A stretch of DNA of 20,000 bases from an uncultured virus (IMG/VR IMGVR_UViG_3300033175_000390) (taxonomy: Duplodnaviria; Heunggongvirae; Uroviricota; Caudoviricetes), in the IMG/VR virus record IMGVR_UViG_3300033175_000390. The stretch is one strand, 5' to 3'. Every line of letters begins with the position of its first letter. The stretch's first letter is position 1. A model generated the notes under the pieces. That model was not told the origin of the DNA and made no database searches. It worked only from the letters and a program-made list of their open reading frames with translations. A program made the position numbers and the translations under genes. Positions 1-9,845 of this stretch are shown piece by piece.

Positions 1-377
1 TCAGTAACATTGAGCAGCAGAGCCTTGAATTCGTCAAATACACCCTCGACCCTTGGGTGATCAGGTGGGAGCAGTCTTTACAGCAGTCTCTCATCTTGCC
101 ATCGGAAAAGACGACGATCTTTATCAAGTTCAACCTCGACGGACTGCTTCGTGGCGACTATCAAAGCCGTATGCAAGGATACTCCACGGGCATTCAAAAC
201 GGCTTCATGTCGGTCAACGACGTGCGTAGCTTGGAAGATATGAACTTGTTGACCGCCGAGGAAGGCGGCGACCTGCACTTCGTCAACGGCAACATGGTCA
301 AGTTGGCCGACGTCGGCGCGGCGTACCTTCCTCCCGAACAGTCGGGCAACCCAAAAGAAACGGAGGACACTTCATGA
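1..377 (+). CDS. HK97-family phage portal protein, C-terminal part (5' end lies outside the window)
   Basis: The frame is open from position 3 (SNIEQQSLEFVKYTLDPWVIRWEQ...FNLDGLLRGD...NGFMSVNDVRSLEDMN...GGD). These are typical HK97 portal C-terminal motifs, and the gene directly precedes protease and capsid. Confidence 0.93.
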   Translation, partial: SNIEQQSLEFVKYTLDPWVIRWEQSLQQSLILPSEKTTIFIKFNLDGLLRGDYQSRMQGYSTGIQNGFMSVNDVRSLEDMNLLTAEEGGDLHFVNGNMVKLADVGAAYLPPEQSGNPKETEDTS

Positions 378-1078
378 AAGTAAAGAAATTCTGGAACTGG
401 GTGCGAGACGAAACAACAGGCGAACGTACCCTCTACCTAGACGGGGTCATTTCCGAGGACACTTGGTGGGGAGACGAAATCACTCCAGCAATGTTTAAGT
501 CGGAACTGTTCTCAGATAAAGGAGATATCATCATCTGGCTCAACTCACCCGGCGGCGATTGTATCGCAGCCAGCCAAATCTATGCCATGCTGATGGATTA
601 TCCGCACAACGTCACAGTTAAGATTGACGGCATTGCAGCTTCGGCGGCAAGCGTAGTAGCGATGGCGGGGACAAAAGTCCTCATGGCTCCCACCGCTCTG
701 ATGATGGTGCATAACCCGCTGACCATTGCCATCGGCGACAGCGAGGAAATGCAAAAAGCGCTGGATATGCTCGCCGAGGTGAAGGAGAGCATTATCAACG
801 CCTATCAAATCAAGACCAACCAGAGCCGGGTAAAAATCTCCCACTGGATGGACGCCGAAACATGGATGAACGCCAACAAGGCAATGGAACTTGGCTTTGC
901 CGATGGTGTACTGGAGGACGGCAAACGACAGCAAGCTGCTCCGACTTATGCGTTCAGCCGCAGAGCGGTTACTAATTCCCTGCTTGACAAGGTTAAGCCG
1001 AAAATAGCAGCCGAACCTGCGCCGCAAAGCGTACCCGTTGAGTCGCTCGAAAAGCGGCTCAATTTGATTATCCACTAA
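374..1078 (+). CDS. ClpP-like head maturation protease
   Basis: S14 protease motifs LNSPGG, GIAASAAS (catalytic Ser), MMVHNP and ETWMNANKAMELGFAD. RBS GGAGG upstream; lies between portal and capsid. Confidence 0.93.
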   Translation: MKVKKFWNWVRDETTGERTLYLDGVISEDTWWGDEITPAMFKSELFSDKGDIIIWLNSPGGDCIAASQIYAMLMDYPHNVTVKIDGIAASAASVVAMAGTKVLMAPTALMMVHNPLTIAIGDSEEMQKALDMLAEVKESIINAYQIKTNQSRVKISHWMDAETWMNANKAMELGFADGVLEDGKRQQAAPTYAFSRRAVTNSLLDKVKPKIAAEPAPQSVPVESLEKRLNLIIH

Positions 1079-1097
1079 TTTTATGGAGGTAAAGACA

Positions 1098-2273
1098 ATG
1101 AGTAAAATTCTTGAACTGCGTGAAAAGCGCAACAAAATCTGGAACACCGCTAAACAGTTCCTCGACCAAAAGCGCGGCGCGGACGGGCTTGTCCCCGCTG
1201 AAGCTGCCGCTGAGTACGACAAGATGGAAGCCGACATGGTCGCCCTCGGCAAGGAAATCGAGCGCCTGGAACGTCAAGCGGCCTTCGACCTCGAAATGAG
1301 CAAGGCAACATCTGAGCCTATTGTCGGCAAGCCTATCACCCCCGAAAAACCCAAGACTGGCAGAGCTTCCGACGAGTACCGTGCAGATTTCCGCAACGTT
1401 CTGCGCGGCAAGCCGATGATTCACAATGTCATGCTGGAAGGCGTGGACGCGGACGGCGGCTATCTCGTGCCGGAGGAATTCGAACGTCAGATTATTACGG
1501 GGCTTGAGGAATCCAACGTCGTCCGCTCCATCGCCAAGGTCATCACGACCTCTGCGGAGCGCAAAATCCCGCTTGCTTCCACCCACAGCGTAGCACAGTG
1601 GACGCTTGAAAACGGGGCGTACCAAGAAAGTAACCCCACCTTCGGGCAAATCACCGTGGACGCCTACAAGCTGACCGATCTCGTGAAGATTTCCACGGAA
1701 CTCCTGCAGGATTCGATGTTCGATCTTGAAACCTACATCGCCGGGGAATTCTCCCGCGCCTTCGGCATCGCCGAGGAGCAGGCGTTTTGCGTCGGCACCG
1801 GCACGGGTCAGCCCACGGGTATCTTCACGACAAACGGTGGTCACATCGGTGTGGCTGCGGGAGCAGCTGTCACGGTGGATAATCTTATCGACTTGATTTA
1901 CAGCCTGAAAGCCCCGTACCGCAGAAACGCCAAGTTCCTGATGAAGGACAGTACCATCTCTTCGCTCCGCAAACTGAAAGACAGCAACGGTGCGTATCTC
2001 TGGCAGCCTTCTGTTCAGGCGGGTCAGCCCGACCGCTTGCTCGGCTACCCGATTTACACCTCTCCGTATGTGCCGGATGTGGCGGCGTCGGCGCTGCCGA
2101 TTGCCTTCGGTGATTTCTCCAACTACTGGATTTGCGACCGTCTGGGCAGAACGGTGCAAAGGCTCAACGAACTCTACAGCACCAACGGGCAGGTCGGCTT
2201 CATCTGCACTCAGCGTGTGGACGGCAAGGTCATCCTCGCCGAAGGTATCCAACTGCTCCAGATGGGCGCGTAA
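1098..2273 (+). CDS. HK97-fold major capsid protein
   Basis: N-terminal coiled-coil delta domain, then GGYLVPEEF, GTGTGQPTGI, LRKLKDSNGAYLWQP and FGDFS motifs. Start placed at ATG 1098 after GGAGG at 1085-1089. Confidence 0.95.
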   Translation: MSKILELREKRNKIWNTAKQFLDQKRGADGLVPAEAAAEYDKMEADMVALGKEIERLERQAAFDLEMSKATSEPIVGKPITPEKPKTGRASDEYRADFRNVLRGKPMIHNVMLEGVDADGGYLVPEEFERQIITGLEESNVVRSIAKVITTSAERKIPLASTHSVAQWTLENGAYQESNPTFGQITVDAYKLTDLVKISTELLQDSMFDLETYIAGEFSRAFGIAEEQAFCVGTGTGQPTGIFTTNGGHIGVAAGAAVTVDNLIDLIYSLKAPYRRNAKFLMKDSTISSLRKLKDSNGAYLWQPSVQAGQPDRLLGYPIYTSPYVPDVAASALPIAFGDFSNYWICDRLGRTVQRLNELYSTNGQVGFICTQRVDGKVILAEGIQLLQMGA

Positions 2274-2291
2274 GAACGGAGGTGAACGGCG

Positions 2292-2609
2292 ATGACGCCA
2301 ACAGAATTGTTACCGAAAGTCAAAGAAAACCTGATACTGGCCCACGGTGAGGACGACGCTCTGCTCCTGCGGCTCATCGCCACCGCCGTGAACTATGCGG
2401 AAAGCTATCAGCATATCGCGGAGGGCTATTACACTGAAAACCCGATGCCGCCCACCACAGAACAGGCGGTGATTATGCTGTCGAGCCATTTCTTTGAAAG
2501 CAGAGATGGCTCGACGGCCGGTTTCTTCGCCGACAGCGTACAGGCAGGTCAGCAGGTCTGGAACACGGTCAACCTCTTACTGCGGCTGGACAGGAAGTGG
2601 AGCGTATGA
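2292..2609 (+). CDS. Head-tail connector (HK97 gp6-like)
   Basis: 105 aa; VKENLIL..EDDALL...AESY and QAVIMLSSHFFESR motifs; first gene after the capsid; RBS GGAGGTGA. Confidence 0.88.
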   Translation: MTPTELLPKVKENLILAHGEDDALLLRLIATAVNYAESYQHIAEGYYTENPMPPTTEQAVIMLSSHFFESRDGSTAGFFADSVQAGQQVWNTVNLLLRLDRKWSV

Positions 2610-2938
2610 GCTTTGGAAAGATGAACACCTTTGTAGACCTTATTGAGAAAGTAACTACAAAAGACTCGGAAGGTTTCAGCACTGAGATTGACAATATTGT
2701 TGCTTCAATAAGAGCATATCGGGAAGGTCGGCACGGCAACGAGAAATGGGCAAACAGAGCCACATTCTCCGAAGCCACCGACCTTTTCCGTTTCCGCTCT
2801 ATTCCAGGTGTCACCGTTACGACTGCAATGCATATTTCTTGTGAATACGGACGATTTGAAATCACTTCTGTGGAGGATGTCAAAGGTCGTGGAATGTACA
2901 TTGAAGTACTCGCCAAGGAGGTGAAGCCCAGTGGCTAA
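2606..2938 (+). CDS. Head closure / head-tail adaptor (SPP1 gp16-like)
   Basis: MSFGKMN...KDSEG...FRFR...FEITSVEDV pattern; ATGA overlap with the preceding stop; syntenic position. Confidence 0.82.
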   Translation: MSFGKMNTFVDLIEKVTTKDSEGFSTEIDNIVASIRAYREGRHGNEKWANRATFSEATDLFRFRSIPGVTVTTAMHISCEYGRFEITSVEDVKGRGMYIEVLAKEVKPSG

Positions 2939-3362
2939 ACCAACTATGAAAATGCCGGAGGACTTCTTGTTGAAGGTTTCCCGGCTGGCCGATCAGACCG
3001 ATGTCATCCTCCCCAGGGTGCTGAAAGCGGGCGGCGAGGTCGTCCTGGACAAGGTAAAAGGAAACCTAAGCTCGTCTATCGGACGCGGCACGAAATACCC
3101 GTCCAAGTCCACCGGCGAATTGATGGGCGCATTGGGGGTCTCCCCGGCGAAGCAGGATTGGGACGGCAACTTCAACGTGAAGGTCGGCTTTTCAGAACCT
3201 CGGAAGGACGGCGGCTCCAATGCCAAGATTGCCAACATCATCGAGTACGGCAAGCATGGCCAGCCGCCCAAGCCCTTCCTCAAGCCCGCCAAGTCAGCTT
3301 CACGGAAGGCTTGCATCGAAGCGATGGCCGTCAAGCTGGATGAGGAGATTAGAAACCTATGA
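2931..3362 (+). CDS. HK97 gp10-family neck/tail component
   Basis: STGEL and IIEYGKHGQPPKPFLKPA motifs; GTG start with RBS AAGGAGGTG. Confidence 0.85.
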   Translation: MAKPTMKMPEDFLLKVSRLADQTDVILPRVLKAGGEVVLDKVKGNLSSSIGRGTKYPSKSTGELMGALGVSPAKQDWDGNFNVKVGFSEPRKDGGSNAKIANIIEYGKHGQPPKPFLKPAKSASRKACIEAMAVKLDEEIRNL

Positions 3363-3703
3363 GCATTTTATCTGAATTGAACAGCCTGCTTGACGGACTT
3401 CACATCCCGGTTGAAACAGGCGTGTTTTCCACCGCCGCCCCGGAAGAGTATGTGGTTATCACTCCCCTTGCTGATACCTACGAACTCCATGCGGACAACC
3501 GCCCGAAATTCGAGACCCAGGAAGCGCGGCTGTCATTGTTCTCCAAGGGCAGCTACACCCAGCGCAAGAACCAAATCTGCGCCGCCCTGCTGGAAACGGA
3601 GATGACCGTGACCGATCGCCGCTACGTCGGGCATGAGGATGACACGGGCTATCACCACTACGCCATCGACGTGGCGAAAGAATACGAAGTACAGGAGGAA
3701 TAA
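3359..3703 (+). CDS. Putative tail completion/terminator protein
   Basis: 114 aa acidic protein ending HEDDTGYHHYAIDV, immediately upstream of the major tail gene. The call rests mostly on synteny. Confidence 0.7.
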   Translation: MSILSELNSLLDGLHIPVETGVFSTAAPEEYVVITPLADTYELHADNRPKFETQEARLSLFSKGSYTQRKNQICAALLETEMTVTDRRYVGHEDDTGYHHYAIDVAKEYEVQEE

Positions 3704-3707
3704 CACT

Positions 3708-4301
3708 ATGGCTACTATCGGGCTTGACAAGCTCTACTACGCGCCGATTACCGAGTCGGCGGCCACGGGCGAGGAATCTTACGGCACCCCCGTCCTGTTG
3801 GCAAAAGCAATCTCAGCGGAGCTGTCGGTTGAACTGGCTGAAGCGACCCTCTACGCCGATGACGGAGCGGCCTATGTCATCAAAGAATTTAAAAACGGAA
3901 AGCTGAAACTTGGTGTTGACGACATTGGGCGCACCCAGGCGGAAACCCTTACCGGAGCGGCCACCGACGAAAACGGGGTGCTTATCTCATCCAGTGAGGA
4001 CGGCGGACCCCCTGTCGCCATCGGCTTTCGGGCCAAGAAAGCCAATGGCGCTTACCGCTACTTTTGGTTTTACAAAGTTAAGTTCGGGGTGCCGTCTACG
4101 AACCTGGCCACCAAAGGTGACTCCATCACTTTCTCTACGCCCACAATTGAAGGTACGGTATCGCGCCGCAACAAACTGGACGGCAACGGCAACCACCCCT
4201 GGAAGGCTGAGGTCAACTCGGACGATGACGGTGTGGCGGCGGCGATCATCACCGGTTGGTACACGGAAGTTTACGAGCCAGCCTTCGCTCTGCAGGGTTA
4301 A
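3708..4301 (+). CDS. Major tail (tube) protein, phi13-family-like
   Basis: MATIGLDKLYYA...LYADDG...VAIGFRAKKANG.YRYFWFYKVKF...TKGDSITFSTPTIEG. Start at ATG 3708 after AGGAGG. Confidence 0.9.
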   Translation: MATIGLDKLYYAPITESAATGEESYGTPVLLAKAISAELSVELAEATLYADDGAAYVIKEFKNGKLKLGVDDIGRTQAETLTGAATDENGVLISSSEDGGPPVAIGFRAKKANGAYRYFWFYKVKFGVPSTNLATKGDSITFSTPTIEGTVSRRNKLDGNGNHPWKAEVNSDDDGVAAAIITGWYTEVYEPAFALQG

Positions 4302-4315
4302 AGGAGGTCTGACCT

Positions 4316-4699
4316 ATGGATAACGAGAGAAGCGCGAAAATCAATATCGGGGGCACGGATTTTGAACTGGTTCTTACTACAAGAGCTACCAAGGAAATAG
4401 CCCGCCGCTATGGCGGTCTGGAAAATCTAGGCGAGAAACTGATGAAGGCTGAAAACTTCGAACTTGCCTTAGATGAGATTATCTGGCTGATTACGCTCTT
4501 AGCCAACCAGTCCATCCTCATCCATAACCTAAGAAACAAGGACGCACCAAAATCTGTTCTTACCGAGGACGAGGTGGAACTTTTGACCTCGCCTTTGGAA
4601 CTGGCCAGCTACAAGGCGGCCATCACCGAAGCGATGTTTAAAGGCACCAAACGCGACATCGAGAGCGAGGGTGACCTAAAAAACACCGGAGCCGAGTAA
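4316..4699 (+). CDS. Tail assembly chaperone, short form (gpG equivalent)
   Basis: 127 aa ORF between major tail and tape measure genes; RBS AAGGAGG; in-frame slippery heptamer A AAA AAC near its 3' end. Confidence 0.85.
   Translation: MDNERSAKINIGGTDFELVLTTRATKEIARRYGGLENLGEKLMKAENFELALDEIIWLITLLANQSILIHNLRNKDAPKSVLTEDEVELLTSPLELASYKAAITEAMFKGTKRDIESEGDLKNTGAE
4678..4684 (+). other. -1 programmed ribosomal frameshift slippery site (A AAA AAC)
   Basis: Codons CTA AAA AAC (4676-4684) give an X XXY YYZ heptamer in the gpG frame. The -1 frame stays open past the gpG stop: HRSRVSDDELFTRLLY up to 4731. Confidence 0.82.
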
Positions 4700-4731
4700 G
4701 CGACGATGAGTTGTTTACCCGGCTTCTTTAT
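4684..4731 (+). CDS. Tail assembly chaperone frameshift extension (gpGT), exon 1 in the -1 frame
   Basis: 16 codons, CAC CGG AGC CGA GTA AGC GAC GAT GAG TTG TTT ACC CGG CTT CTT TAT, ending exactly at the intron 5' GTGCG. Confidence 0.78.
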
Positions 4732-5289
4732 GTGCGCCCAGATAGGGCATTGCCTAATGTGGTGTAGGAGCCACTCCGAACGATAACTCGGGAAATAACC
4801 CACTTAACCGAAAGGCGAAAGCTGGCACGGGAACAAAGCACGGTGGGAAAGCGGTAAGTCACCTTAAAACACATTGGTGCGACTGAACTGCAATATTAAG
4901 CGGATATAAGGTTTAAATTGGGTTTATTGAATGCGAGTTTCCAGTTTCTGTTAGTCGTAGGCGGAGGAAATGTGTTTGTAACCTCTGGAGCAGGAAAGGT
5001 TGTCATTAATAGAGGGACAATCGGTTATCAAATATCCTGTTCAACACGCAAGAGAACTTGTGATAACGAAACGAAAGCAAAACCGACAATCCGCACATAC
5101 CTGTAGGCAGTGTTAACTGGGGATACCCTAAACAGGAACGCCACAACGCGGCTATAGCCACAGGGCTTGAATACCCTGCATGGGTACGGAGCGTTCGTAG
5201 TAGTCCGAGGACGGGAAAGCCGTCCACATGGCGAAGGGACGCAGTTGTTGTGTACTAAAATCAAAATTGATTAGGGAGGAAAACCTCAT

Positions 5290-7080
5290 ATGCAACCAAC
5301 AATAGAGATTTTAGCAAGAATCAGCGTAAACTCTAACGCAAACAAGGATGAAGTTTTTACAAGACTTTACCGCTATTTGTTGCGACCAGATATCTACTTT
5401 GAAGCATATAAAAACCTGTATGCCAATAACGGAGCAGCGACCCGTGGCGTGGATAATGATACCGCAGACGGTTTTAGCGAAGCGAAAATTGATAAAATAA
5501 TAAAATCGCTTAGTGATGAAACCTACACGCCAAAATCAGTGCGAAGAACTTATATCGATAAGGGAAACGGGAAAAAGCGACCGTTGGGCATTCCGACTTT
5601 TACGGACAAACTGGTGCAGGAGGCACTTCGTATGGTACTTGAAGCTGTGTATGAACCGTCTTTCTTGGATTGGTCGCACGGTTTCAGACCGAACCGAAGC
5701 TGTCATACCGCGCTGGCAAGTTTGAAGAAAGAGTTTACAGGGGCGCGTTGGTTTGTCGAGGGCGACATTAAGGGTTGTTTTGATAATATCGACCACGCCG
5801 TTTTAATAAGTATGCTGAACAAGAAAGTGAAGGATGCACGAATAGTCAAACTGATTTACAAATTTTTAAAAGCAGGTTATATGGAAAATTGGCAGTACCA
5901 CAACACCTACAGCGGTACTCCGCAAGGCGGAATTATTTCGCCGTTGCTTGCCAATATCTATCTGCACGAACTGGATAAGTTTGTAATGATGTTAAAGGCA
6001 GAGTTTAACAAGCCGAGAGAAACCCATTCCACGTATGAATACGGGGTTATAAGAAGAAAGATGAAAAAACTCCGTAAGGAAATCGAAAACGCGGACGGTG
6101 ACAAGCGTGGGCAATTGCTTGATGAATATAAAGCAACTCGCGCACAGTTATTACAAACCCCCGCGAAGTCACAAACTGATAAGAAAATCAAGTATATCAG
6201 ATATGCAGACGATTTTTTGATTGCCGTCAACGGAAGTCGTGAGGACTGTGCGGAAATCAAGCGCAGGTTATTCGAATTTATCGGACAGACCTTGAAAATG
6301 GAACTCAGCGACGAAAAAACGTTGATTACCCATAGCAATGATTACGCGCGGTTTTTGGGCTACGATGTACGTGTGAGGAGAAATGGAAAAATTAAGCGCG
6401 GCGGTAAAAATGGTTGTACTAAACGCACGCTTAGCAATAATGTGGAACTCTTAGTGCCCTTTGAAGATAAAATCAATAAATTCCTGTTCTCAAAGGGTGT
6501 TGTTAAACAACGGCTGAACGGTACTGTCTACCCAACGCACAGACCCGCCCTGGAACGATTGACCGACCTTGAAATTGTGATGACCTACAACGCCGAACTC
6601 CGTGGAATATGCAATTATTACAGATTAGCCAGCAACTATAATAGTCTTGGGTATTTTGCATATCTGATGGAATATAGTTGTTTACGAACGCTTGCAGGAA
6701 AACACAAATCAAAGGTTAGCAAAATCAAGGAGAAGTTCAAAGACGGTCATGGCAAATGGGGTATTCCTTATACGACTAAAAAGGGTGAAAAGCGCTGTTA
6801 TTTCGCTAAATTAGCCGATTGCAAAGGGGCAAAATTCTGTACGGATATATTGCCAAACGCTTTTGTAATCCACATGAGCGCAAGAAATACCTTTGAAAAC
6901 AGGTTGAAAGCGAAAGTTTGCGAGCTATGTGGGACAACGGATGCAGAACACTATGAAATTCATCACATTCACAAGGTAAAAGACCTCAAAGGGAAAGAGC
7001 CTTGGAAAGTGGCGATGATAGCCAAACGGCGAAAAACTATGGTGGTTTGCAGAAACTGTCATAACACAATTCATCATTAA
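5290..7080 (+). CDS. ltrA: Group II intron-encoded protein (reverse transcriptase / maturase / HNH endonuclease)
   Basis: 596 aa, collinear with Lactococcus LtrA as recalled: EVFTRLYRYLLRPDIY, RPLGIPTFTDKL, HGFRP, EGDIKGCFDNIDH, GTPQGG, YIRYADDF, FLGY, ELRGICNYY, and C-terminal CELCG..EIHH..CRNCH. Confidence 0.95.
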   Translation: MQPTIEILARISVNSNANKDEVFTRLYRYLLRPDIYFEAYKNLYANNGAATRGVDNDTADGFSEAKIDKIIKSLSDETYTPKSVRRTYIDKGNGKKRPLGIPTFTDKLVQEALRMVLEAVYEPSFLDWSHGFRPNRSCHTALASLKKEFTGARWFVEGDIKGCFDNIDHAVLISMLNKKVKDARIVKLIYKFLKAGYMENWQYHNTYSGTPQGGIISPLLANIYLHELDKFVMMLKAEFNKPRETHSTYEYGVIRRKMKKLRKEIENADGDKRGQLLDEYKATRAQLLQTPAKSQTDKKIKYIRYADDFLIAVNGSREDCAEIKRRLFEFIGQTLKMELSDEKTLITHSNDYARFLGYDVRVRRNGKIKRGGKNGCTKRTLSNNVELLVPFEDKINKFLFSKGVVKQRLNGTVYPTHRPALERLTDLEIVMTYNAELRGICNYYRLASNYNSLGYFAYLMEYSCLRTLAGKHKSKVSKIKEKFKDGHGKWGIPYTTKKGEKRCYFAKLADCKGAKFCTDILPNAFVIHMSARNTFENRLKAKVCELCGTTDAEHYEIHHIHKVKDLKGKEPWKVAMIAKRRKTMVVCRNCHNTIHH

Positions 7081-7107
7081 GAGTTTAACTGACCAAACAA
7101 CAATGGG

Positions 7108-7141
7108 GAGCCGGATACCTTGAGAGGGGTAAGTCCGGTTC
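7108..7141 (+). ncRNA. Group II intron catalytic domain V
   Basis: GAGCCGGATACCTT-GAGA-GGGGT-AA-GTCCGGTTC: a 34-nt hairpin with AGC triad (7109-7111), GNRA loop and 2-nt bulge. Confidence 0.93.
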
Positions 7142-7202
7142 CGGGAGAGGACTGTGCAAACCTACCGTAGAAATGCGGCAAGGCGGCATTTTCCTACTCC
7201 AC

Positions 7203-7358
7203 TACGGTACGGTGCATCTGAACCGTTCCGAAGAGGAAACCTGGCTGACCCCGTTGGGTCTGCTCATGGACTTGTGGGAGTGTCATAAGCAGTTTCTGGG
7301 CTTGGCCAGGCCCAAACAGGAGATGTTCATAGACGGCATCATTCCGGAAGGCGTTTAA
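7203..7358 (+). CDS. Tail assembly chaperone frameshift extension (gpGT), exon 2
   Basis: Starts at the first base after the intron with TAC and reads YGTVHLNRSEEETWLTPLGLLMDLWECHKQFLG...PEGV* (51 aa). Joins exon 1 in frame as ...FTRLLY|YGTVHL... Confidence 0.82.
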   Translation, partial: YGTVHLNRSEEETWLTPLGLLMDLWECHKQFLGLARPKQEMFIDGIIPEGV

Positions 7359-7406
7359 GGGTTATCTGCATATAAGCGGCGGCTTATGCACAGATAGCCC
7401 TTTTCT
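7357..7406 (+). terminator. Intrinsic terminator-like hairpin between gpGT and tape measure genes
   Basis: AAGGGTTATCTG (7357-7368) pairs with CAGATAGCCCTT (7391-7402), with an inner ATAAGC/GCTTAT stem; the 3' arm ends in a short TTTTCT (7401-7406). Confidence 0.55.
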
Positions 7407-7439
7407 ATGTGCAATTCCGCAGCTAAAGGAGGTGGCGGC

Positions 7440-9845
7440 ATGGCGGACAATTTCGGCCTTAAAATTGGGGTCGAAGGCGAAAAGGAATTTAAAAATGCTC
7501 TCAGGGACATCAACCAGTCCTTTAAGGTGCTGGGTAGCGAAATGACCCTCGTAACCAGCCAATTTGATAAAAACGATAAATCCATACAATCGGTTACCGC
7601 CCGGAACACGGTTCTAAGTAAAGAAATCGACGCTCAGAAAGAGAAGATTTCCACCCTTAAGGCTGCACTGGACAATGCCTCCTCCTCTTTCGGTGAAAAT
7701 GACCGCCGTACTCAGAACTGGCAGATTCAACTAAATAAGGCTCAGGCAGAAATCAACGGTATGGAGCGTGAACTTGAGCAGTCCACAATCGATGCGGATA
7801 AGCTCGGTGAAGAATTAGACGATTCCGGTAAAAGTGCTGACGAGGCCAGTGGCAAGTTCGAAAAGCTGGGCGGCATCCTCAAAGGCATCGGCGTAACTAT
7901 GGGCGCGGTTGCGGTTGCCGCCGGTGCCGCCGCAATCAAGCTAGGCCAAGAAGTCGTGCAGCAGTTCGGCGAACTGGAGCAGAACCTGGGCGGTTCAGAA
8001 GCCGTGTTCGGCCAGTACGCCGCCTCCATCCAGAAGACCGGCGAAGAAGCCTACAAGAACCTGGGAGTTTCCCAAAGCGAGTACCTCGCCACCGCCAATA
8101 AGATGGGTGCGCTGTTCCAAGGCTCCGGCATTGAACAGCAAAAGTCGCTGGAACTGACTGAAAAAGCCATGCAGCGAGCGGCGGATATGGCCTCCGTCAT
8201 GGGTATTGATATGCAGATGGCTTTGGACTCCGTGGCAGGTGCGGCCAAAGGCAATTTCACCATGATGGATAACCTGGGCGTAGCCATGAATGCCACCAAC
8301 ATCCAAGCCTACGCTTTAGCCAAGGGCCTTGACTTCACCTGGGCATCCGCCACCAATGCGGAAAAAGCCGAAGTCGCCATGCAGATGTTCTTTGATACTA
8401 CCGAGCAGTATGCGGGGAACTTCGCCAAGGAGTCGACCCAGACCATCACTGGTTCAATCGGGCTGCTCCAAGCCGCCCTGGGATCGTTTACCGCCGGGCT
8501 GGGCAACGCCAACGCCGATATGACAAACCTGACCCAGAATCTGGTGGAAGCCTTTCAGGCTGTCGTTACTAACATTGTACCGGTTTTGGAGAACATCGTA
8601 GCTGCGCTGCCCCCGGCGGTTGGTTCCATATTGCAGGCGGTGGGTGATCTGCTGCCCACGCTCCTGAGTACAGTTACGGAACTGTTCTCGCAAGTGCTGG
8701 AAACCGTCCTGAATCTTTTGCCGCAACTAATCCCGGCGGCTGTTGGTGCCGTAATGACGATTGTCGGGGCCTTGATTGATAACCTTCCATTGCTCATCGA
8801 AGCGGCAGTGCAGCTGGTGTCTGCCCTTGTGGAGGGCATCGGTCAGGCTTTGCCGGAGTTAATCCCCGCCGCCGTAAACGCTGTCGCAACGATTGTCCAA
8901 GGCTTGGCAGACAATCTGCCCATGCTGCTGGGCGCGGCTTTGCAGCTTATCCTGGGCCTGGCGCAGGGGCTGGTGGACGCGATACCGCAGTTAATTGCCG
9001 CATTGCCCGCCATAATTAATGCTCTGGTTGATTTCATCATCGGGGCTGTGCCGCAGATTATCCAGGCGGGCATCCAGCTTTTAGCGGCCTTGGTCAAAGG
9101 ACTGCCGGAAATCATCATAGCTGTTGTGGCAGCCATACCCCAGATTGTCGAAGCGCTGGTTACCGCCATCATAGACCCGGAAAGCACCGGGATGATAATT
9201 GAGGCTGGTTTTGTCCTCTTTGTTTCTTTGATTCAGAACCTGCCTGCCATCATAGCTGCCATAGTTAAAGCCGTACCCCCGATCATTACCGCCATAGTGA
9301 ACGACTTTCGCCAGGGCATCGACCGTATTGTGGAGGTAGGCAAGTTTATCGTCGAGGGTATCTGGGAAGGGGTCAGCCAGATGGGTGGCTGGCTGGCGGA
9401 CAAAGTGAGAAACTTTGCTAAATCCATCATTGACTCCATAACCAGCGCTTTAGGGATTAGCTCGCCATCAGTCGTCATGCGGGACTTGGTCGGCAAAAAC
9501 CTGGTATTAGGTTTGGCGGAAGGAATAAGCCAAAACAGCAAAGACGCGGTCATAGCAGCTCATCGTCTGGTCAGCGATACTCTGGCTGCCATGGAGGAAC
9601 TGAGCAAGGGGACGGATTTTACGATTGCAGTGGGTGGTCTTAAGTCTGGATTGGAAGGTATGATGCCGCCAGCAGCAGCTCCTTCTGAACTGGCTTCATC
9701 AAACTTCGGCAGATATTCCCCAGACACACCAGGCAGCGCTGTGATCAACAACACTCTAAACTTTTACACTCCCACCGCCAGCCCAGCGGATATCGCTAAA
9801 GCCAGCCGCCGGGCAGCGGAGCAGATGCTGCGGTATGCCACTTAG
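7440..9845 (+). CDS. Tail tape measure protein (801 aa)
   Basis: Long Ala/Leu/Ile-rich helical protein with periodic LP.L/IP.I repeats and a C-terminal LGISSPS motif. RBS AAAGGAGGTG before ATG 7440. Confidence 0.93.
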   Translation: MADNFGLKIGVEGEKEFKNALRDINQSFKVLGSEMTLVTSQFDKNDKSIQSVTARNTVLSKEIDAQKEKISTLKAALDNASSSFGENDRRTQNWQIQLNKAQAEINGMERELEQSTIDADKLGEELDDSGKSADEASGKFEKLGGILKGIGVTMGAVAVAAGAAAIKLGQEVVQQFGELEQNLGGSEAVFGQYAASIQKTGEEAYKNLGVSQSEYLATANKMGALFQGSGIEQQKSLELTEKAMQRAADMASVMGIDMQMALDSVAGAAKGNFTMMDNLGVAMNATNIQAYALAKGLDFTWASATNAEKAEVAMQMFFDTTEQYAGNFAKESTQTITGSIGLLQAALGSFTAGLGNANADMTNLTQNLVEAFQAVVTNIVPVLENIVAALPPAVGSILQAVGDLLPTLLSTVTELFSQVLETVLNLLPQLIPAAVGAVMTIVGALIDNLPLLIEAAVQLVSALVEGIGQALPELIPAAVNAVATIVQGLADNLPMLLGAALQLILGLAQGLVDAIPQLIAALPAIINALVDFIIGAVPQIIQAGIQLLAALVKGLPEIIIAVVAAIPQIVEALVTAIIDPESTGMIIEAGFVLFVSLIQNLPAIIAAIVKAVPPIITAIVNDFRQGIDRIVEVGKFIVEGIWEGVSQMGGWLADKVRNFAKSIIDSITSALGISSPSVVMRDLVGKNLVLGLAEGISQNSKDAVIAAHRLVSDTLAAMEELSKGTDFTIAVGGLKSGLEGMMPPAAAPSELASSNFGRYSPDTPGSAVINNTLNFYTPTASPADIAKASRRAAEQMLRYAT

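Follow-up and report, generated by a model that had tools for sequence, protein, structure and literature searches.

The stretch of DNA analysed here (20,000 nucleotides, referred to below as the window) is the structural module of a tailed phage. Its genes run in the order major tail protein, gpG (4316-4699), gpT and tape measure, and bases 1-9696 are a 100% match to PV036457.1, a Ca. Heliusvirales record. The gpT reading frame is split by a group II intron, and a hairpin just upstream of the insertion site contains IBS2, the exon segment that pairs with EBS2 of the intron. The features are as follows.

3708..4301, + strand: major tail protein gene (phrog_88, E 6.9e-51)
4316..4699, + strand: gpG, a putative tail assembly chaperone ORF of 127 aa (phrog_2115, Phage_TAC_11 lead, gene position)
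4678..4684, + strand: slippery heptamer A_AAA_AAC (X_XXY_YYZ), near the end of gpG
4684..4731, + strand: 5' exon part of gpT, 16 codons, in the -1 frame of gpG
4688..4726, + strand: predicted hairpin of the window allele, 16 bp with an A-C mismatch and a 5-nt loop
4690..4724, + strand: conserved core stem, 4690-4699 with 4715-4724 (pairing conservation, covariation)
4697..4699, + strand: gpG stop codon TAA, inside the 5' arm of the stem
4720..4724, + strand: IBS2 (CGGCU), exon positions -12 to -8, wholly within the core stem
4726..4731, + strand: IBS1 (CUUUAU), only its first base in the stem, pairing 6/6 with EBS1 including one G-U
4732..7202, + strand: group IIA (ML, Ll.LtrB-like) intron of 2471 nt, GUGCG...AC (RF00029, boundaries from L256)
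4953..4957, + strand: EBS2 (AGUCG), intron positions 222-226, pairing 5/5 with IBS2
5008..5014, + strand: delta A5008, which pairs with exon base +1, and EBS1 AUAGAG (5009-5014), in an 11-nt hairpin loop
5290..7080, + strand: intron-encoded protein of 596 aa with RT (YADD), maturase and HNH parts (Pfam RVT_1, Intron_maturas2, AI2M-like_HNH)
7203..7358, + strand: 3' exon of gpT, 51 codons (phrog_10988), in which the -1 frame continues once spliced
7440..9845, + strand: tape measure protein gene (phrog_58, E 8e-72)

The matching record PV036457.1 (L081) was filed as Ca. Heliusvirales from human feces, and its annotation consists of short hypothetical ORFs and an RT, with neither the intron nor the frameshift marked; the main text of the Heliusvirales paper (PMC11283538) contains no mention of an intron, a frameshift, a reverse transcriptase or tail assembly. 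Sequencing runs containing the stretch came from sludge, wastewater, landfill and digester samples. An identical copy of the phage region stands on a contig whose title names a Ca. Micrarchaeota MAG (L161), where it has probably been mis-binned. Between 16550 and 20000 the window carries three serine-recombinase-like ORFs after lysis genes, named by eye.

The best profile for gpG is phrog_2115 'tail protein' (E 4.7e-26), and its lead in the Atlas is Phage_TAC_11 (score 0.90), a family found on 29% of that cluster. It matched nothing in Pfam, and a fold search with its predicted model (pLDDT 80) gave no clear match, the best being an unrelated protein (Z 5.3, rmsd 3.4, 85 residues aligned). Position agrees with a G/GT pair, with the phrog_88 gene upstream and the phrog_58 gene downstream of gpG/gpT. 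The locus resembles lambda gpG/gpGT in its overlapping frames between the major tail and tape measure genes and in the X_XXY_YYZ sequence near the end of the first ORF (PMC5009743). According to the same source A_AAA_AAC itself occurs at the g-t site of HCTV-2, and those parts of the paper that deal with G-T sites name no 3' stimulator for them (PMC5009743).

We compared this site with its relatives in 106 loci, four of which lacked the 3'-arm motif used for extraction, two of them because an intron splits it. Of the 66 distinct segments obtained, five carry 18-nt insertions and four the intron; the remaining 57 rows are of equal length, and 56 of them are distinct and make up the intron-free alleles counted below. 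Invariance of the motif columns in this set is partly by construction. The heptamer A_AAA_AAC begins all 66 segments, for whose extraction an A-run was required, although no locus failed on the A-run; in a second set, in which the heptamer was not required, it was present in 37 of 38 distinct segments, the other one ending in T. The gpT frame has no start of its own; from the heptamer onward it coincides with the -1 frame of gpG. No conserved start codon was found among the 16 codon columns before the intron site. The -1 frame is free of stops in 56/56 alleles and open for at least 55 codons in 62/62 segments without an intron at the 4731/7203 site, and in the intron-free allele L256 gpT is one contiguous open frame. 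If the RNA is left unspliced, the -1 frame reads 11 codons of the intron and then a stop (window 4732-4767), which would yield a truncated gpGT.

The intron has all the parts of the IIA/ML class: GUGYG/AY ends, domains V-VI, recognition by EBS1, EBS2 and delta, and an RT-maturase-HNH protein. Domains V-VI lie in an Rfam RF00029 match at 7106-7202 (54.6 bits), and L256 matches the window on either side of the intron, as far as 4731 and then from 7203 onward, which fixes the boundaries. The closest solved sequence to the intron-encoded protein is LtrA (residues 1-596, E 1e-250). Like Ll.LtrB/LtrA of Lactococcus lactis, the intron has the same 5' end motif, EBS2 at 222-226, delta-EBS1 at 277-283 and a colinear RT-maturase-HNH protein. 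It differs from Ll.LtrB in that its host gene is a phage tail chaperone predicted to require a frameshift, its IBS2 is buried in an exon stem and its EBS1-IBS1 pairing is weak, at -1.8 kcal/mol where the median of 95 exon ends is -4.4, with a mismatch in the alleles L083 and L162. The EBS/IBS assignment agrees with the behaviour of sibling introns: in a set of 96 rows, in which the window is present twice and many rows are kin, EBS2 pairs 5/5 with exon positions -12 to -8 in 57%, as compared with 11% after permutation of exons, and EBS1 pairs in at least 5 of 6 positions in 90%, as compared with 39%. Group IIC introns likewise insert just 3' of a stem-loop, at terminators or attC stems, according to the sections of the source cited (PMC4424553), but the intron here belongs to class IIA, has a true EBS2 and encodes an HNH domain. 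Targeting of the stem in the IIC manner was considered and rejected, since an EBS2 exists and follows IBS2 from one member of the clade to the next, and most sibling sites are stem-free.

The siblings (L084-L239) form a clade of Ll.LtrB-like introns whose proteins are mostly 56-73% identical; in 95 exon ends 60 different combinations of EBS2 and EBS1 were counted. To judge by eye from the flanks, many interrupt genes of this same prophage family, namely those for portal, protease, capsid, major tail, tape measure and endolysin.

Folding of the window allele predicts a stable hairpin downstream of the heptamer, with a minimum free energy of -22.7 kcal/mol (86% of the ensemble, z -7.14); 0 of 200 shuffles were as stable. 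This is the helix that an earlier note had drawn from the letters alone: 4688-4694 pairs with 4720-4726 and 4696-4704 with 4710-4718 around a 5-nt loop, giving 16 pairs and one A4695-C4719 mismatch, with the gpG stop in the 5' arm. The stem formed both with and without intron domain I, the comparison proposed in that note, being kept when 4640-5060 (exon plus domain I) was folded, and it was also intact in a fold of the ligated exons. Two details of the description had to be amended. The 3' strand had been given as exactly IBS2 plus the first base of IBS1; these do make up the outer strand 4720-4726, but the linker base 4725 lies between them. The spacer had been given as 3 nt, which holds for the window's lowest pairs, but the conserved core begins 5 nt after the heptamer. 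The two lowest pairs are poorly conserved, 4688/4726 being paired in 27/56 alleles and 4689/4725 in 44/56. As a separate observation, the 5' arm at 4688-4694 is the same 7-mer as the one that opens intron domain V (7107-7113), so that the IBS2 strand is complementary to domain V as well; this 7-mer has four copies in the window against 3.1 expected, and its recurrence is likely to be due to chance.

The core helix is conserved across the family. Of 80 gpG loci in viral contigs, all but one are without an intron at this site and retain the stem. In the 56 distinct intron-free alleles, 96.3% of 560 core cells are paired, and 38 cells show changes on both sides as compared with 6.5 in shuffles; 0 of 500 shuffles reached either figure, and slid-register controls were 27-51% paired. 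The shuffles ignore kinship, so joint changes were also counted on a tree of 60 alleles computed from the flanking DNA. When the 308 column pairs are ranked by joint change, the first three places all go to pairs of the stem (4695/4719, 4698/4716 and 4701/4713); 4692/4722 ranks 22, and the three pairs at 4687-4689/4725-4727 rank 168-257. The pair 4690/4724 is formed in 54/56 alleles. In both arms the bases that change together are third codon positions of the gpGT frame, and the changes are silent, with Arg CGG/CGA/CGC facing Thr ACC/ACT/ACG and Val GTA/GTG facing Phe TTT/TTC; protein constraint therefore does not explain the covariation. RNAalifold retained only 8 core pairs, at -4.6 kcal/mol. 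Repeated compensatory changes in intron-less homologues, which the earlier note had named as a way of checking the stem, are thus present in this family.

These findings are consistent with a role for the stem as a 3' stimulator of -1 frameshifting, as had been suggested, on the grounds of its 5-nt spacer and covarying core. Stem-loops located 3' to the slippery site stimulate -1 frameshifting in dnaX too. The stem also resembles the stimulators of IS911 and HIV in being stable and in standing 5 nt after the heptamer, within their range of 5-9 nt; it differs from them in that each arm is coding sequence of the -1 frame and the wobble positions of the two arms lie opposite one another. Since -1 stimulators are usually 5-9 nt from the heptamer in the published account (PMC5009743), the placement of the core answers the concern that a 3-nt spacer is too short. 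The distance from heptamer to stem is fixed in 61/66 distinct segments, and the other five differ by exactly 18 nt. Three of these have the insertion in the loop, with frame and stem both kept. The other two, L035 and L048, have 18 extra nt between the heptamer and the core stem, which is at odds with a strict spacer; the insert of L048 forms a hairpin of its own directly after the heptamer, possibly a replacement stimulator.

By calculation the hairpin and the EBS2-IBS2 pairing compete in the pre-mRNA, as the earlier note had argued, the stem being the stronger of the two. Opening IBS1 and IBS2 together would cost 10.5-13.0 kcal/mol in the four intron-bearing alleles, which take ranks 1, 3, 4 and 5 among 92 exon ends; for the remaining 88 the median is 3.1, the 95th percentile 7.6 and the maximum 12.2 kcal/mol. 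Opening IBS1 alone costs 2.6 kcal/mol. The EBS2-IBS2 duplex is worth -3.9 to -4.5 kcal/mol, and on nearest-neighbour energies the stem outcompetes it, leaving IBS2 buried. The further proposal, that a ribosome arriving at the gpG stop frees IBS2, survives only in part. When a ribosome is placed in the model at positions between the AAC codon and the stop, with an assumed 11-15 nt covered, the opening cost falls to 0-3.9 kcal/mol, so a passing ribosome does open the stem in the model; it does so, however, three to four codons before the stop, and in 4/56 alleles the gpG stop is at another place.

The premise that EBS2-IBS2 pairing is needed for splicing is not supported by two introns studied elsewhere. 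Loss of this pairing in Ll.LtrB reduced splicing while loss of EBS1 abolished it (PMC7444581), and IBS2 mutants of RmInt1 retained 71-85% excision (PMC3123198); DNA homing requires EBS2 in either case (PMC3123198). In RmInt1, loss of IBS2 combined with a weakened IBS1 nonetheless made excision barely detectable (PMC3123198), and in a pre-catalytic Ll.LtrB RNP both IBS1 and IBS2 are described as paired (PMC7641739). These two results and the weak EBS1-IBS1 helix found here mean that this intron may truly need the stem to be opened. Contigs from four of 6 RNA runs (80% likeness) cover pieces of the intron. One RNA contig, X16, joins 4725 to 7203 with six other letters between and is the intron-free junction of another allele; in such contigs spliced RNA is indistinguishable from an intron-free phage template.

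The intron has spread recently. Among its four alleles (the window, L083, L162 and L163) it differs by 0-1 base over about 2.45 kb, while the exons are only 62-74% identical and the tree places four separate gains. A near-identical intron in four unrelated alleles has the pattern expected of recent homing, and spread on this timescale would imply an active RNP in some donor. By comparison of the sequences the stem is ancestral and far older than the intron. The intron-free alleles L256 and L330 have hairpins identical to those of the window and L162 respectively. Stem energies in the intron alleles (-24.0 to -26.7 kcal/mol) lie inside the intron-free range (-16.2 to -31.9, median -22.1), which argues that the stem was not weakened after the intron arrived. 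The A-C mismatch was considered as an adaptation that frees IBS2 and was rejected, for it occurs in 4/56 intron-free alleles and in L256, and the other three intron alleles pair at that position. A stem that predates the intron and is the same in intron-free twin alleles speaks against the evolved coupling of translation, frameshifting and splicing that the earlier note had envisaged.

The choice of target can be examined in the same alleles. Forty-seven of the 56 intron-free alleles would pair 5/5 with EBS2 and in at least 5 of 6 positions with EBS1, so the intron fits the family consensus. The insertion site ranks 43 of 548 windows for conservation and the two neighbouring intron sites rank 126 and 346; the idea that these introns choose the most conserved windows was thus only partly borne out. 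Sibling introns occupy many sites that have no such stem. Pattern scans of viral and metagenome contigs for a diverged intron at the same site returned only known copies or chance matches, and among 125 genomes of the class of G004 the only hits were G004 itself and one sibling intron, which lies in another gene, probably a relaxase-like one.

On balance we think it probable that an old stimulator of -1 frameshifting has been joined by an intron that colonised the site late, one that splices by means of IBS1 and either takes IBS2 when the stem is opened or dispenses with it. According to this explanation, the hairpin would act as the 3' stimulator of a programmed -1 frameshift that yields gpGT from gpG. 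Ribosomes on A_AAA_AAC would meet the 10-bp core 5 nt downstream, a minority slipping back by one base and the rest terminating inside the unwound stem. An Ll.LtrB-like intron whose EBS2 and EBS1 happen to match this conserved stretch would have homed recently into several alleles, and as homing operates on DNA the RNA stem would have been irrelevant to insertion. In the pre-mRNA the stem would cover IBS2 and leave IBS1 free; splicing would be anchored on IBS1, and IBS2 would be skipped, or else captured with help from the maturase when a ribosome on gpG opens the stem. The overlap of stem and IBS2 is then best read as a by-product of homing into a conserved site and not as a switch built by selection.

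A stronger claim for translation is possible, though we hold it only tentatively: the weak EBS1-IBS1 helix may make EBS2-IBS2 pairing necessary, and only a ribosome on the last codons of gpG may open the stem for long enough. It would follow, with the same reserve, that splicing takes place, and gpGT and mobile intron RNP are produced, only during translation of the late tail operon. The calculated energies agree with this proposal, as the cost of opening IBS1 and IBS2 far exceeds what the EBS2-IBS2 duplex returns and the modelled ribosome removes most of that cost, and a precedent exists in the T4 td intron, which is reported to splice poorly once upstream translation is uncoupled (PMC3017892). 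As in td, an exon pairing here opposes the splicing fold, and in td it is relieved by translation of the upstream exon (PMC3017892); td, however, is a group I intron in which the mispairing is between exon and intron and was found by experiment, whereas the stem here is a functional exon stem and its effect is calculated. Nearest-neighbour energies, moreover, take no account of Mg2+, of tertiary contacts or of the maturase, a protein situated next to the EBS-IBS helices in the structure described (PMC7641739), and the free IBS1 can serve as a toehold. The partial dispensability of IBS2 in Ll.LtrB and RmInt1 and a stem left unaltered after the intron's arrival also weigh against gating by the ribosome, as does the prospect that frameshifted ribosomes on unspliced RNA, reading 11 intron codons, would cover the splice site. 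Gating keeps a real chance nonetheless because of the double-loss result in RmInt1 and the weak IBS1 pairing here. In its fullest form, which we hold with equal reserve, a single helix would set the gpG:gpGT ratio, lock IBS2 until a gpG ribosome arrives and re-form after ligation to shield the mRNA.

The last of these functions can also be proposed separately. The stem may work after splicing, re-forming in the ligated exons so as to speed release of the product and to block re-binding, reverse splicing and reopening of the exons; this we consider very improbable, along with its corollary that EBS2 is kept solely for DNA homing and that a shielded essential gene is a tolerable home. The stem is intact in the fold of ligated exons, Ll.LtrB is reported to reduce host mRNA through EBS-IBS pairing with the spliced message (PMC6003770), and four lineages have kept the intron in a gene whose lambda counterpart is required for tail assembly. 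The proposal is, however, a purely inferential one, and sibling introns sit in essential structural genes that have no stem, so shielding is not required. A role of this kind is compatible with the late-colonist explanation and would add to it. It is least probable of all, finally, that the stem is conserved for some job other than frameshift stimulation, for example as a nuclease site or in attenuation that reduces expression of the tape measure gene. A U-rich stretch does follow the stem (in 47/56 alleles, 5 or 6 of 8 nt are T), two alleles have a much longer spacer, and an SD-like 4-mer found within 20 nt upstream of the heptamer in 45/66 segments, a count made with no chance control, could be the real stimulator. 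Yet a terminator scan did not call the stem, the longest T run after it is at most 4 in 55/56 alleles and is explained by Leu/Tyr codons, and the heptamer keeps its distance from the stem, fixed or offset by exactly 18 nt as described above.

Each part of this arrangement is of a known kind. The literature searched did not describe their combination, a presumably active IIA intron with its IBS2 buried in a covarying frameshift stem: among titles and the openings of abstracts, with few subscription papers covered, no group II intron in a frameshifted tail chaperone and no IBS2 buried in a frameshift stimulator came to light. To our knowledge no 3' stimulator has been identified for lambda G/GT. 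This family departs from lambda in having a family-wide covarying 3' stem and a T part that is split by a group II intron, and the covariation is evidence that a 3' stimulator of the G/GT frameshift is present throughout the family. Natural alleles ranging from -16 to -32 kcal/mol are suited to testing how the chaperone ratio is set. The intron alleles offer a natural test of whether bacterial group II splicing depends on translation of the upstream exon, and of how a IIA intron copes with a buried IBS2 and a weak IBS1. Were ribosome gating true, recoding, splicing and intron mobility would be linked to the lytic phase of the phage, and release of the mobile RNP would be confined to the period of late phage translation, in which replicating phage DNA offers abundant targets; were it false, the locus would be an instance of a selfish intron tolerating a structured target.

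Other introns lie close to the same site. In L106 (193-2677; also in L107) a sibling intron whose protein is 69% identical is inserted 18 nt upstream, between the arms of the same hairpin. There, in a reversal of the situation in the window, the two arms cannot pair until the intron has been spliced out; the fold of the ligated exons gives -24.1 kcal/mol. A second sibling intron lies inside gpG, about 200 nt before the heptamer, in L162 (and L255) and in L099-L101. In L162, which has both introns, production of gpGT would need two splicing events and a frameshift.
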